From NCBI GenBank assembly GCA_963558185.1, contig CAUWFE010000003.1:14135-78134 (forward strand): a stretch of 64,000 bases of DNA. The letters run 5' to 3'. The notes beneath the pieces were generated by a model. The model was not told the origin of the DNA and ran no database searches. It was given only the letters and a program-made list of their open reading frames with translations. The DNA is from an uncultured Clostridia bacterium (GTDB lineage: Bacteria; Bacillota; Clostridia; TANB77; CAG-508). Made by a program: the position numbers and the translations under genes. Shown here in pieces: positions 43,572 through 48,382 of this stretch; within the stretch, counting starts at the first letter, position 1; the number at the start of each line of letters is the position of its first letter.

Positions 43572-44249
43572 ATGAATGATGTAACTGTTTTGGTAGTAGA
43601 TGATGAATCAAGAATGAGAAAATTAGTAAAAGACTTTCTACAGCAAAAAGATTATAAAGTATTAGAAGCAGCAGATGGAGAAGAAGCATTACATATTTTT
43701 GAAGAGAACGAAAATAAAATAGGAATAATATTATTAGACGTAATGATGCCGAAATTAGATGGATGGTCAGTGTTAAGACAAATAAGGCAAACTTCAAAAG
43801 TTCCAATTATAATGCTTACTGCAAGAGGAGAAGAACAAGATGAATTATTTGGATTTGAATTAGGTGTAGATGAATATATATCAAAACCGTTTAGTCCTAA
43901 AATACTAGTTGCAAGAGTAGAGGCAATACTAAAAAGGTCTAGAGCAAATGAAACTCAAACTAAAGATTATGGTGGTATTGTAATAGATAGTGAAGGAAGA
44001 ACAGTAAAAATAGATGGAAAGCAAATAGATTTAAGTTTAAGGGAATATGAACTTTTAAAATATTTGATGGATAACCAAAATATTGCATTATCACGTGATA
44101 AAATATTAAATAATGTATGGAATTATGATTATTATGGAGATTCAAGAACTATAGATAGTCACATAAAAAAAATTAGACATAAATTAGGTAAAAAAGGTAA
44201 ATATATTGAAACTATGAGAGGGGTAGGGTACAAATTTGAGGTAAAATAA
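43572..44249 (+). CDS. OmpR-family response regulator
   Basis: Receiver domain (VLVVDDE, LLDVMMPKLDG) and a winged-helix C-terminus (LSLREYELLKYL...TIDSHIKKIRHKL). Confidence 0.85.
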   Translation: MNDVTVLVVDDESRMRKLVKDFLQQKDYKVLEAADGEEALHIFEENENKIGIILLDVMMPKLDGWSVLRQIRQTSKVPIIMLTARGEEQDELFGFELGVDEYISKPFSPKILVARVEAILKRSRANETQTKDYGGIVIDSEGRTVKIDGKQIDLSLREYELLKYLMDNQNIALSRDKILNNVWNYDYYGDSRTIDSHIKKIRHKLGKKGKYIETMRGVGYKFEVK

Positions 44250-44314
44250 GGAAGTGCGGGTTATAAATTCTTTTCAAACCAAATTTGTACCTTGCGGAAG
44301 GAATGGGATAAAAA

Positions 44315-45826
44315 ATGGAAAAATTAAAGAAAAAATTTAGCTCAGTGAGAGTAAAATTATTTTTTTCTTTATGTATAGTAGTCATTTCAATTATACTATT
44401 TTTAATAGTTATAAATAATGTGGTGTTAGAAACTTTTTATATATACTCTAAAACTAAAAACATAGTTGAAGCATATGAAAAAATAAATTACATGTATAAT
44501 CAAATAGAAAATGGTGTAACAGGAATAGATGTAGAAACAGAATTAAATAAAATCGCAGTAAAAAATGAATTTGATATTGTTGTGGAAAATGAACAATATA
44601 TTACACTATACACAACAGATTCTAATTTTAATTCATTATTAGAAAAAATTAATATATATGCACAAAGCAATAAAAAGTTGACAAATAATCAAATTATATA
44701 TTCAAAAGACAATATAAAAATTGAAAAAGTAGTAGATGAAAAAGATGGCATGAATTATATAATTTTAAATGCAACGTTAGAAAATAATTATAGACTATTT
44801 ATACGTATACAAGCAGAAACAATACAAGAAAGTGTACGAGTTTCTAATAATTTATTAATTCTTATAGGAATAGTTTCAGTGATAATTGCAGGAATTTTAG
44901 CTTCATTTATTTCTAGAAAATTTACAGAACCTATATTAGAGTTAAATGAAATTGCTAAAAATATGTCAAAACTAGATTTTAGAAAGAAATATGAAATAAA
45001 AGATACAAATGACGAGATTAATGATTTAGGAAGAAGTATTAATATAATGTCTCAGAAATTGGAAACAACAATAAAGCAATTAAGAAATAATAATATAGAA
45101 TTGGAAAAAGATATAGAAGAAAAATCTAAAATAGATGAAATGCGTAAACAATTTATATCAGATGTATCTCATGAATTGAAAACTCCAATAGCACTTATTC
45201 AAGGTTATGCAGAAGGATTAATTGAAAACGTAAATAATGATGAAGAATCTAGAAATTTTTATGCACAAGTTATATTAGATGAATCAAATAAAATGGATAT
45301 ATTAGTTAAGCAATTATTAGAATTGATGAAACTAGAATATGGAAAAAGAGAATTTAATAATGAAACATTTGACATAATAGAATTAATAAAAGAAGTTATT
45401 AGAAAATGTAATGTGATGCTAAAAGAAAAGAATATAGAAGTAGAATTTAGCACATTAGAGCCAACTTATGTATTTGCAGATGAATTTTATATAGAACAAG
45501 TGGTAACTAATTATATTACAAATGCTATAAAACATTGTGAAGAAAAAAATGGAAAAAGAGTAATTAAAGTTAATGTAGAAAAAGTAAAAGATAAAATAAG
45601 GGTTAAAGTGTATAATTCAGGAGAACAAATAGGTGAAGAAGATTTAGAGCGTATATGGAAAAGATTTTATAAAATAGATAGTTCACGAAATCGAGATGAT
45701 GGTGGAACTGGAATTGGTTTATCTCTTGTAAAAGCAATTATGAATAACTATGGAAATCAATATGGAGTTGAAAATAAAGAAGAGGGAGTAGAGTTTTACT
45801 TTGACCTAGAAAGTGCAAAAAAATAA
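44315..45826 (+). CDS. Sensor histidine kinase (two TM helices, HAMP, HisKA, HATPase_c)
   Basis: H-box FISDVSHELKTPIA. N, G1 and G2 boxes are present (NAIKH, GTGIGLSLVKAIM). Confidence 0.85.
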   Translation: MEKLKKKFSSVRVKLFFSLCIVVISIILFLIVINNVVLETFYIYSKTKNIVEAYEKINYMYNQIENGVTGIDVETELNKIAVKNEFDIVVENEQYITLYTTDSNFNSLLEKINIYAQSNKKLTNNQIIYSKDNIKIEKVVDEKDGMNYIILNATLENNYRLFIRIQAETIQESVRVSNNLLILIGIVSVIIAGILASFISRKFTEPILELNEIAKNMSKLDFRKKYEIKDTNDEINDLGRSINIMSQKLETTIKQLRNNNIELEKDIEEKSKIDEMRKQFISDVSHELKTPIALIQGYAEGLIENVNNDEESRNFYAQVILDESNKMDILVKQLLELMKLEYGKREFNNETFDIIELIKEVIRKCNVMLKEKNIEVEFSTLEPTYVFADEFYIEQVVTNYITNAIKHCEEKNGKRVIKVNVEKVKDKIRVKVYNSGEQIGEEDLERIWKRFYKIDSSRNRDDGGTGIGLSLVKAIMNNYGNQYGVENKEEGVEFYFDLESAKK

Positions 45827-46075
45827 TAAATACAAAGTCATTAGAAGAATTAGAATTGGCTTCTAATGGCTTTTTTTGTGCATTATTTGTCAGAATTTGT
45901 CGAAAATATCTTTAAAAAAAGACTTTACAAAACTGTAAATATATGGTAATATATATCCAGCTTTTAAATTGCAATTTAAATCAAAAAAGTTAATTCATTA
46001 GATTTTTATCATTAATTTAATTCTTAGTAAAAATCTAACTAATTAAAATCAATTTAAGGTAGGTGAATTGTATGA

Positions 46076-46654
46076 ATGTTATTATGTAATAAAAAAAATG
46101 TAATTATACTATCATTAATTTTATCAATCATTATTCTTTTTGGAATTCATTTTATATTAATAGATGTTGATAATAAAAAAAGTACTCAAAATAATTTACA
46201 ATCTCAAGTAACTTTAAAAATATCAAAACAAAAGTTAAAAACAAATAATTATGAATCATTATTTATATATCAAAAAACCAGTAATTGGAGAATAAAAATT
46301 CCAAGAATTAATTTAGATGCTGCTATACAAGAAGGTACAAGTACAGCTACTATGAGGCAAGCAGTAGCTCATTTTGAAAATACAAGTAAATGGAATGGAA
46401 ATGTTTGCTTAGCAGCACACAATAGAGGATATAAATATAATTTTTTCGCACTAATTAAAAATCTAAAAAAGGGTGACATTATAATATATAAGTTAGGAGA
46501 TGAAGAAAGAGTATATGAAGTAGAAAAAAATATGCTAATTCCAGAAACAGAATGGTCATATTTAGAAAAGAGTAATGATAACAAAATCACATTAATTACT
46601 TGTGTAGAAAACAAACCTGAATATAGAATTTGTGTACAAAGTAAAGAAATATGA
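46076..46654 (+). CDS. Sortase (SrtA-like transpeptidase)
   Basis: N-terminal TM anchor, the catalytic His in LAAHNRG, the TLITC cysteine motif and a downstream Arg in YRICV. Confidence 0.75.
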   Translation: MLLCNKKNVIILSLILSIIILFGIHFILIDVDNKKSTQNNLQSQVTLKISKQKLKTNNYESLFIYQKTSNWRIKIPRINLDAAIQEGTSTATMRQAVAHFENTSKWNGNVCLAAHNRGYKYNFFALIKNLKKGDIIIYKLGDEERVYEVEKNMLIPETEWSYLEKSNDNKITLITCVENKPEYRICVQSKEI

Positions 46655-46666
46655 GAAGGGAGTAAA

Positions 46667-47254: not shown

Positions 47255-47691
47255 AAAGACTAAAAAATGTTATATTTATTATTATTTTGCTTCTATTATT
47301 AATTGTAATTGGCATTATAAAAACAAAATTGCCAAATCATAAAATACAAATATGTGGTTTTAGTATATGGATAGTAGAAACAGGTAGTATGTTACCAGAA
47401 TTAAACATTGGTGAAGCAATAATAATAAAGGAAAATAAAGATTATGAAATTGGAGATGTAATAACATATAAAGAAAAAAATTTATATTATGTAACACATA
47501 GAATTGTAGAAAAAACACCAGAGGGATTTTATACAAAAGGTGATAATAACAATGTTAAAGATGAAGATATAGTTTTATTAAATCAAATAGAGGGAAAGGT
47601 GGTGTTTCATTCTATTATATTAGGATATATAATTAAATATAGTTGGATTTTAATCATTCTTCTACTTTTAGTAATTATTCTATGCACATGA
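47251..47691 (+). CDS. sipW: Signal peptidase I, SipW (ER/archaeal) type
   Basis: VETGSMLPEL carries the catalytic Ser. Other SipW-type blocks are GDVITYK, VTHRIV and TKGDNNNVKDED. The start overlaps the upstream stop. Confidence 0.8.
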   Translation: MKRLKNVIFIIILLLLLIVIGIIKTKLPNHKIQICGFSIWIVETGSMLPELNIGEAIIIKENKDYEIGDVITYKEKNLYYVTHRIVEKTPEGFYTKGDNNNVKDEDIVLLNQIEGKVVFHSIILGYIIKYSWILIILLLLVIILCT

Positions 47692-47695
47692 AACT

Positions 47696-48190
47696 ATGAA
47701 TAAAAAGATAATAAAATTAAAAAATAAAAAAATTGCAATAATATTTATAATAATACTATTTATAACTTTTTTTATTACAGGAACAGTATTTGCAAAATAT
47801 GTATCAAAAATAACAGGAAAAGGAATTGCATATATAGCTAAACCTATAGTAGAATTAGTTGGAAATAATACTTTAAATTTAGATATATCTAAAGAAAATT
47901 CAAAATACTATTTTGAAGTGAAAAATTATAATGAAGAAAATGAAATAACAGAAGTAAAAATGGAATATTACATAGAAATACAAATAGATAAGCCAAGTAA
48001 TATAAAATATGAGATATATAAAATAAATGAAAATAAAAGAGAAAAAATAGAAATGAAAAATGAAAAGAGTAGAAAATTTACTTTAAGAGTGAAAGAAAAA
48101 CAAATAGATAAATATTGTATAGAAATAAATAATAAAGAAACAAAAGAATGTCAAATGCAAATTAAAATTTTATCAAAACAAATAGAGTAG
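47696..48190 (+). CDS. Secreted protein paralogous to the 46667 ORF, with the same signal class
   Basis: Signal-anchor, then FAKYVSKITGKGIAYIAKPIVEL, paralogous to 46667. Confidence 0.5.
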   Translation: MNKKIIKLKNKKIAIIFIIILFITFFITGTVFAKYVSKITGKGIAYIAKPIVELVGNNTLNLDISKENSKYYFEVKNYNEENEITEVKMEYYIEIQIDKPSNIKYEIYKINENKREKIEMKNEKSRKFTLRVKEKQIDKYCIEINNKETKECQMQIKILSKQIE

Positions 48191-48196
48191 GTAAAA

Positions 48197-48382
48197 ATGA
48201 AAAAAATATTAAAAAGAATAGTAATTATATTGATTATTATACTAATGATATTAAGTGGTAAACAATATGCTAAATATGTTATTGTAAAGCAAGTAAAAGT
48301 ACAAATTAAACAAAATACAATAAATAGTGTTACAAAAGAAAATTTAAATGCAAAGAACAATATAATTTTAACAAAAAATTGA
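48197..48382 (+). CDS. Small secreted or anchored protein (third short paralog candidate)
   Basis: Signal-anchor plus YAKYVIVKQVKV, recalling the AKY/SKY motif of the two larger paralogs. Only 61 aa. Confidence 0.3.
   Translation: MKKILKRIVIILIIILMILSGKQYAKYVIVKQVKVQIKQNTINSVTKENLNAKNNIILTKN

Follow-up and report, generated by a model that had tools for sequence, protein, structure and literature searches.

The 64-kb window analysed here, the whole stretch from position 14,135 to 78,134 of contig CAUWFE010000003.1 (assembly GCA_963558185.1) of an uncultured Clostridia bacterium, has a G+C content of ~25% and contains a locus in which the genes for a two-component system are followed by those for a sortase, a SipW-type signal peptidase and three signal-anchored proteins, designated P4, P6 and P7. 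The locus may encode a regulated fibre or matrix cassette, the subunits of which would be processed by the SipW-type peptidase. Its seven open reading frames (ORFs), all found on the forward strand between positions 43572 and 48382 where an original prediction from the sequence alone had placed them, are listed in Table 1 with the features of the regulatory DNA. The response regulator, histidine kinase, sortase and signal peptidase assignments made in that prediction were borne out by matches to family models. P4, P6 and P7 had no match in Pfam or NCBIfam, and a search with P4 against PDB sequences was also negative.

Table 1. Genes and regulatory features of the locus, with positions in the 64-kb window.
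Feature	Position	Strand	Length (aa)	Evidence or composition
OmpR/PhoB-type response regulator	43572..44249	+	225	Response_reg 3.3e-30, Trans_reg_C 1.6e-26
Membrane sensor histidine kinase	44315..45826	+	503	HAMP, HisKA, HATPase_c
Candidate terminator, AT-rich hairpin and T-run	45840..45877	+		ATTAGAAG-12 nt-CTTCTAAT, then GGCTTTTTTT; read from sequence
Tandem direct repeat, candidate response-regulator box	45886..45905	+		ATTTGTCAGA/ATTTGTCGAA, 10-nt period
Sortase-operon promoter	45923..45952	+		-35 CTTTACA, 17-nt spacer, extended -10 TGGTAATAT
Perfect palindrome	45963..45980	+		TTTAAATTGCAATTTAAA, just downstream of -10; AATTGCAATT core invariant in six loci
Small membrane-anchored sortase (srt)	46076..46654	+	192	PF04203 3.5e-22, 78.9 bits (cut-off 26.6)
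P4, presumed major secreted subunit	46667..47254	+	195	signal anchor, N-terminal segment, beta-sandwich body
SipW-type (ER/archaeal-type) signal peptidase I (sipW)	47251..47691	+	146	TIGR02228 85.8 bits (cut-off 51.85)
P6, second secreted subunit	47696..48190	+	164	signal anchor ending FA↓KY, shared segment, different beta-sandwich
P7, stub of large fourth subunit	48197..48382	+	61	signal anchor, YAKYV motif, ~35 more residues

The srt, P4, sipW, P6 and P7 genes are tightly packed, with gaps of 12, 4 and 6 nt and an overlap of 4 nt between the P4 stop and the SipW start. The best reading of the locus is one of two transcription units, the first an OmpR/PhoB-type two-component system and the second a srt-P4-sipW-P6-P7 operon. 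The translation of the peptidase includes the Ser, His and Asp motifs of its family (GSM, THRI and KGDNN). It scored 78 bits against NF046067, the equivalog model for Bacillus SipW, which has a cut-off of 190, and hence is not that Bacillus SipW orthologue. The P4 stop overlaps the start of this gene and P6 begins 4 nt after its end, which supports the proposal of a dedicated SipW translationally coupled to secreted proteins in which the signal anchor ends in a conserved motif.

P4, P6 and P7 had been described as three paralogs, and for P4 and P6 this holds for the N-terminal segment, whereas no relationship is detectable between the bodies. When the ~30 residues past the membrane segment were compared using hhalign, a probability of 95.9% (E 6e-9) was obtained, the segments having been anchored on the motif so that the score is partly by construction, and BLASTP of P4 against P6 found the N-terminal motif only (E 0.014). 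The families defined by the mature domains, with 159 ORFs for P4 and 82 for P6, have none in common, and their hhalign probability is 9%. For this segment, the P4 family has the consensus G-x-T-[YF]-[SA]-K-Y-x-x-x-V-x-G-x-G-x-A-x-[IV]-A-x-W-x-F-K-V and the P6 family G-x-S-x-[GA]-K-...-I-A-x-P-I-L-x-V. Judged by these alignments, what is common to P4 and P6 appears to be an N-terminal module, not the body. The last beta-strand ends alike in the two families (V-x-G-T-Q in P4, [IV]-H-[TS]-E-Q in P6 and I-H-A-E-Q in the P4-like protein of a related locus, L036), and these similar ends may stem from a very distant common ancestor or from an interface that both use.

Related loci, numbered with the prefix L, were collected as a first set of 86 which together with the window makes 87, and their ORFs were annotated using HMMs seeded from the window proteins. 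Neighbours were counted over +/-8-10 kb, and SipW and sortase genes within 8 kb. P6 accompanies P4 in the first set, with phmmer matches in 87/87 sources and 82 ORFs detected by the mature-domain HMM, and its homologues fall into 36 clusters. The AF2 model of P6 (pLDDT 80.9) is a beta-sandwich, for which Foldseek returned generic beta-sandwich, collagen-binding and PPC-type domains, all at E >3e-3. Alignment A3 of the P6 homologues includes an invariant K135, N77/N79 (KNYNE) and E80/E94 (YYIEI), a set of Lys, Asn and Glu that would fit an isopeptide triad within the molecule, as in Gram-positive pilin domains.

P7, which had been suggested to be a paralog fragment, is not a fragment of P4 or P6. 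Its N-terminus matches proteins of 441-717 aa encoded in L014, L060, L071, L073 and L077, all beginning ...[YF][AS]KY[VI]..., and P7 is an N-terminal stub of this fourth, large family. A MucBP match is significant in the L071 protein, and a ChW-like C-terminus is sub-threshold in that of L077 and was recognised elsewhere by eye. Among the closest relatives of the window, the fourth gene encodes 524 aa in L073 and 526 aa in L077, and is a stub of 61 aa in the window and of 46 aa in L007 and L019; stubs of 46-49 aa equivalent to P7 are present in L007, L019 and L001. The stubs of L007 and L019 differ by 5 synonymous and 14 non-synonymous codons, the regulators by 54 and 5, respectively. In these small numbers there is no sign of constraint on the stub. 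The P4a, P6 and large-protein families all have small residues at -1 and -3 of the predicted cleavage site.

The commonest architecture among the related loci is P4 - P6 - P4b - large protein, where P4b has a P4-like body and a different N-terminus, without a sortase or SipW gene within 8 kb. SipW was found in 17/87 first-set loci and a sortase in 13/87. SipW genes also stand beside P4-family genes in unrelated layouts, either as P4-SipW123-P4-P4 (L013, L027, L030 and L033) or in double-SipW loci (L036, L164, L165 and L170), and this recurrence is evidence that SipW and the P4 family are functionally linked. In the double-SipW layout, exemplified by positions 1387-4279 of L036, two SipW genes bracket two P4-like genes and are followed by a gene for a protein with the N-terminal motif; a ~2,000-aa protein comes next in L165 and L170. 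The L036 genome carries its double-SipW locus and a P4-P6-P4b locus 4 kb apart.

The syntenic clade to which the window belongs has eight members (the window, L007, L019, L025, L056, L073, L077 and L080), with the gene order response regulator, histidine kinase, srt, P4, sipW, P6 and a stub or large protein, then the same genes for 427-aa and ~590-aa products. The order from the two-component system through srt, P4 and sipW to P6 is retained in L007, L019, L073, L080 and L077. In most type-B loci (e.g. L014, 11231-13980), the four-subunit cassette is followed by genes for a 195-aa HD-domain protein and two membrane proteins of ~494 aa and ~225 aa. The equivalent of the larger membrane protein in L005 (~499 aa) has a faint SecD_1st match, and the smaller one looks SecF-like by eye. 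The presence of these genes after the cassette could reflect either conserved synteny or a functional export link.

The two-component system adjoins the operon as originally described, and the pairing is kept in 6/8 orthologous loci. The regulator has a receiver and a winged-helix domain and the kinase both HisKA and HATPase_c, consistent with the OmpR family, and no NCBIfam equivalog was matched by the regulator at its cut-off. The regulator is 88-91% identical to its L007 and L080 orthologues and the kinase 69-80% to its own. The hairpin at 45840-45877 would split the two-component system from the sortase operon; it was not called by the consensus terminator scan, as its stem has too few G-C pairs. 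The copies of the direct repeat end 18 nt upstream of the -35 hexamer of the operon promoter, and 6/6 orthologous loci have a GTCGA(A/T)(A/G)AAA-like box in the corresponding position. Direct repeats beside the -35 suit an OmpR-type regulator, and binding of the response regulator at these GTCGA-type boxes would place the operon under the control of the two-component system.

The operon promoter was called by the promoter scan as TTTACA-17-TAATAT with TG. CTTTACA and TATGGTAA-AT (ending at 45952) are invariant across six loci in which the P4 proteins are only ~50% identical, and conservation of the promoter at that level of protein identity indicates a real regulated promoter for the srt-P4-sipW-P6-P7 operon. 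In L080, each arm of the palindrome is shorter by one base and the symmetry is retained. The palindrome could serve as the operator of a dimeric regulator or form a hairpin in the 5'-UTR; binding by an OmpR-type regulator is not expected. The consensus promoter that had been taken as a further sign of regulated expression does exist, matching the sigma-70 consensus at 12/12 positions (TTGACA-17-TATAAT, 48379-48407) and overlapping the P7 stop codon. However, since it lies after the P7 stop and before the next gene, the start of which (48460) is 53 nt downstream, it serves that gene and has no bearing on the locus. The gene in question (48460-49743) is syntenic in all related loci, and its 427-aa product looks by eye like a CorC/HlyC-like membrane protein.

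The P4 family is large. A profile search identified 5,542 clusters at 50% identity with E up to 1e-3, and 293 with E up to 1e-30, and a word-indexed search found 59 clusters, none of which has a name or a Pfam domain. A scan of species-representative genomes using A2, a narrower P4 alignment, detected relatives in at least 202 stretches, 80 of which were listed. All 80 listed records are uncultured Clostridia-type metagenome-assembled genomes from the gut, and humans (Hadza), chicken, mouse, roe deer and sheep are among the sources named in their titles.

In the AF2 model of P4 (pLDDT 75.9), residues 8-27 form a membrane helix, 28-44 a stretch of low confidence and 59-189 a beta-sandwich. Y33, G39, G41, W48 and F50, which fall within or next to the low-confidence stretch, do not vary in the narrower alignment and reach at least 90% conservation in the wider one. 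Thus, the N-terminal segment has many invariant residues, yet a pLDDT of 36-55 in the monomer. In TasA-like proteins, the most conserved residues are those in the protomer interface (PMC10151520). The best Foldseek matches of P4 in the PDB, all weak, were a PapD-like domain, the TasA fibre 8aur, CfaB, FimG, PapE and 7ueg, with 8aur in second place (E 7e-3, TM 0.36). That these are mostly donor-strand fibre subunits is a consistent theme, not proof. The signal peptides of P4 (residues 8-31) and TasA (4-27) aligned in hhalign such that P4 ends at the known TasA cleavage site, with a probability of 15% that is not significant. The TasA query was checked against 8aur (504 bits), and a 62-member Peptidase_M73 alignment was built from it. 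When the profile of alignment A1 was compared with PDB sequences, TasA was not found, and the only match was a chance one to a kinase.

From these features, we infer the cleavage site, two-component control, donor-strand polymerisation and a role for the sortase as follows. P4 and P6 would be exported by Sec and held in the membrane via their signal anchors. The SipW encoded in the operon would then cut P4 after S31 (GGYTYS↓KYY) and P6 after A33 (GTVFA↓KY), in each case before the conserved Lys; this site is proposed on the basis of the small residues at -1 and -3, the GG helix breaker upstream and the alignment with the TasA site. Cleavage would free the conserved N-terminal segment of ~20-30 residues that is common to otherwise unrelated beta-sandwich proteins, and the freed segment would serve as a donor strand which, by analogy with TasA, TapA and BsaA, links the subunits into a non-covalent surface fibre or matrix. 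P4 would be the major and P6 the minor subunit, and P7 the remnant of the large ChW- or MucBP-bearing subunit that has the same N-terminus in related loci. The sortase would be a normal LPXTG transpeptidase accessory to the cassette, with its substrate encoded elsewhere or lost. Overall, we consider the chances about evenly divided that the locus is a regulated, SipW-processed fibre or matrix cassette like tapA-sipW-tasA or bsa, with an accessory sortase for which the substrate is missing here.

Several findings weigh against this interpretation. Neither of the models proposed as a check was matched by P4, P6 or P7, Peptidase_M73 (PF12389) at E up to 1 and TIGR04088, the model for the SipW-cognate signal peptide, at its cut-off of 19 bits; one of 30 P4 family members scored 13 bits with the latter (E 0.088), over the whole model. 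The mature domains of P4 and P6 gave hhalign probabilities of <1% against the TasA alignment, and all Foldseek matches of P4 and P6 were above E 1e-3. Half of what the original prediction had named as speaking against a fibre was thus found, in that there is no SipW-cognate or M73 match, and the comparison with the TasA profile aligns signal peptides only. The fold evidence is weak. No SipW gene is present within 8 kb in 70/87 first-set loci, and many distant members of the P4 family are single genes without a nearby partner. The P4 domain is also found at the N-terminus of proteins of 350-957 aa with Flg_new or InlB-B repeats, GLUG or dockerin-like regions, which suggests a more general capacity to carry or assemble other domains, and such fusions fit a display or anchoring module as well as a fibre subunit. 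These long proteins include P0203, P0205, P0238 and P0286, with the dockerin-like region of P0205 recognised by eye; none ends in a sorting signal, and the contigs that give the genomic context of four distant fusions are of 2-3 kb only. Within the clade of the window, P6 is a stub of ~60 aa in L025 and L056, SipW is absent from L056, and the L077 sortase gene (7407-7989) is split into ORFs of 149 aa and 77 aa by a frameshift or sequencing error. The gene content of this clade is thus unstable, and the locus in the window may itself be partly degenerate.

The fusion proteins, the solo genes and the lack of a significant structural match to any fibre subunit would also be explained if P4 and P6 were monomeric beta-sandwich modules for binding or adhesion, secreted or displayed with the help of a dedicated SipW, and the N-terminal segment were an element for export recognition or retention. 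The resemblance of P6 to collagen-binding and PPC-type domains, as much as to anything, points the same way. We regard this explanation as a serious possibility, though a rather doubtful one. A fixed set of P4, P6, P4b and large protein recurs across loci, and three of the four, P4b being the exception, carry the N-terminal motif, which is the pattern of a multi-subunit assembly. Moreover, conservation is highest in a segment left unpacked in the monomer model, and the top weak fold matches of P4 are donor-strand pilins.

The sortase scored 68.8 bits against TIGR01076 (cut-off 39.35) and reached the cut-off of no class-specific NCBIfam sortase model (66/160 for class C, 54/160 for class E, 51/140 for SrtD, 40/165 for class D and 12/154 for class B), so that it is assigned to none of the classes. 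The nearest solved chains are 2kw8 (annotated as 'LPXTG-site transpeptidase family protein', E 5.7e-11), 5hu4 and 4d70, which we take to be Bacillus anthracis SrtA, a Listeria SrtA and Clostridium perfringens SrtD, respectively. In an alignment with Staphylococcus aureus SrtA, the His (in LAAHN), Cys (in TLITC) and Arg (in EYRIC) of the window sortase fall on H120, C184 and R197, respectively. The catalytic triad is therefore complete, an incomplete one having been named in the original prediction as speaking against it, and its residues do not vary among 11 sortases linked to such loci. Conservation of the sortase in this clade equals or exceeds that of the subunits: the window and L007 sortases are 68% identical, P4 54% and P6 51%. 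In nearly all locus-linked sortases, the catalytic Arg is followed two residues later by another Cys (E-Y-R-x-C-[VI]-Q, residues 184-186), with Ile in its place in L058; S. aureus SrtA is without this Cys.

When the 64-kb window was scanned for sorting motifs, no LPXTG-type protein was found. P4, P6 and P7 are without a C-terminal sorting signal, as had been noted, and neither they nor the large fourth proteins have the motif, a hydrophobic segment or a basic tail, unlike SpaA-type pilus subunits; the C-termini of P4 and P6 are short and variable. Likely substrates are encoded in other loci of the family. In both L071 and L001, a homologous sortase gene adjoins that for an LPXTG adhesin with TED and SpaA domains, which is set between the sortase and P4. 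The order in L071 is srt-x243-TED/SpaA(LPQTG)-P4-SipW-P6-P4b-MucBP protein, and that in L001 and L002 is srt-TED/SpaA-P4-P6-stub. The simplest reading is that the TED/SpaA adhesin is the sortase substrate and that the clade of the window has lost the adhesin gene from the operon. The L001 adhesin (6667-7968; also in L002) ends ...KLPVTGM, followed by two stop codons, and has no hydrophobic segment or basic tail; as this end is identical in two independent metagenomes, an assembly error is unlikely. The 'x502 LPPTG' proteins near many of the loci were rejected as sortase substrates because their GLPPTGG is internal and they look like a housekeeping enzyme, by eye lysyl-tRNA synthetase. A weak NCBIfam hint of EF0750_LPXTG in 4/30 P4 family members was also dropped, being absent in eight members that were rescanned.

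Given these adhesins, the structure could be a hybrid in which the sortase covalently joins a TED/SpaA LPXTG adhesin to the SipW-processed fibre, through the new N-terminus or an exposed Lys, with the adhesin gene of this genome lying outside the window. The position of the sortase gene at the head of the same operon, the intact triad of an enzyme more conserved than the subunits, and the placing of the adhesin gene between srt and P4 in L071 and L001 are all in keeping with such a hybrid, as is the near-invariant Lys after the predicted cleavage site. However, this Lys is Arg in the L001-type P4 and P6 proteins, which are from an adhesin-bearing locus, and Gln in P0012, and for this reason it was rejected as a general nucleophile of the pilin-motif kind. 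In addition, 74/87 first-set loci are without a sortase within 8 kb, no LPXTG protein was found in the window, and plain cell-wall anchoring by the sortase accounts for the same facts. We therefore consider a hybrid fibre unlikely. It is similarly improbable that the system represents a new type of Gram-positive fibre, built from unrelated beta-sandwich families that carry one SipW-cleaved N-terminal segment, assembled by strand exchange and bearing a sortase-attached LPXTG thioester adhesin. If true, it would bring both known Gram-positive fibre-building principles together in one structure, with a common N-terminus as in type IV pilins.

The absence of P4b, the reduction of the large subunit to a 61-aa stub evolving without sign of constraint between L007 and L019, and the additional losses in L025, L056 and L077 would fit a decaying remnant of a four-subunit system that no longer makes a functional structure. 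This is very unlikely for the copy in the window, in which the sortase, P4, SipW and P6 genes are intact, tightly coupled ORFs and the promoter and palindrome are conserved; the P4 genes of L007 and L019 further differ by 44 synonymous and 23 non-synonymous codons, indicating purifying selection. Least probable of all, and hardly to be expected, is the suggestion that the sortase itself polymerises or anchors P4 and P6 via a non-canonical signal, which would explain its co-transcription with P4, SipW and P6 and the want of a canonical substrate nearby, but P4 and P6 have no motif, hydrophobic segment or basic tail at their C-termini, the same proteins occur mostly in loci without a sortase, and deletion of srtB in C. 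perfringens left BsaA polymers unchanged (PMC7395162).

The fibre or matrix interpretation can be compared with several known systems. In the FCT pilus loci of Streptococcus pyogenes, the gene order is cpa - sipA/lepA - backbone pilin - srtC - minor pilin. The pilins have LPXTG-like signals and a pilin-motif Lys and are polymerised by the sortase, and SipA is catalytically inactive. The likeness, closest for L071, is that one operon encodes a TED adhesin together with a homologue of signal peptidases, a sortase and small subunits. In contrast to FCT loci, the subunits here are without a sorting signal and the Ser, His and Asp motifs of the peptidase are retained.

Archaeal bundling pili (PMC9245690) are donor-strand fibres, as is TasA, and the window proteins would compare with these pili in their small beta-sandwich subunits, putative N-terminal donor strand and ER/archaeal-type peptidase. 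Their structure 7ueg was among the weak fold matches of P4 at E 0.03, which is not significant, and there is no sequence relationship.

TasA is assembled by donor-strand exchange (PMC9674648), and TapA provides its N-terminus by strand complementation (PMC10151520). The locus resembles tapA-sipW-tasA in having a dedicated SipW translationally coupled to its substrates (PMC9674648; PMC10151520), and in combining a presumed major subunit with an accessory protein that has the same putative N-terminal strand, both subunits being beta-sandwiches. As in TasA, the signal peptide ends in GG-x-T-aromatic-small, and cleavage would expose an N-terminal strand. Unlike TasA, the window proteins have no Peptidase_M73 match, and K-Y follows the cleavage site in place of A-F-x-D. 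Further differences from tapA-sipW-tasA are the presence of the sortase and two-component system and of up to four subunit families with the N-terminal module.

The closest published counterpart of the layout is the srtB gene adjoining sipW-bsaABCRSD in C. perfringens (PMC7395162; PMC11580942), and the gene combination as such is thus already on record. Both include a SipW-type peptidase, matrix proteins without LPXTG, a two-component system and a sortase next door. BsaR/BsaS are required for expression (PMC7395162), and BsaA is assembled by donor-strand exchange (PMC11580942). The two loci were compared by gene content. Unlike bsa, the operon here begins with the sortase gene, which lies on the same strand, the two-component system forms a separate upstream unit, and the locus in the window is without a vWA protein. 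BsaA and BsaB are reported remote homologues of TasA, whereas P4 and P6 have no detectable TasA signal. An Asn-Lys isopeptide lock of the BsaA type was also rejected for P4, since its mature domain, unlike BsaA, has no conserved Lys.

What is new is the existence of large, unannotated substrate families that are not detectably TasA-like on sequence, and of one N-terminal module in several unrelated subunit bodies. Large as it is, the P4 family is represented by neither a Pfam nor an NCBIfam model, and none of its members has been studied. If its proteins form SipW-dependent fibres, these would be a widespread, unnoticed surface structure of uncultured gut Clostridia, of relevance to adhesion, biofilm formation and host contact. 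The module offers a concrete, testable assembly signal. Also new are the variants that still hold a likely sortase substrate, such as L071 and L001, and these have a parallel in the bsaB-like gene with LPXTG found in other C. perfringens strains. Hence, such variants may help to explain the linkage between sortase and SipW that is unexplained in C. perfringens.

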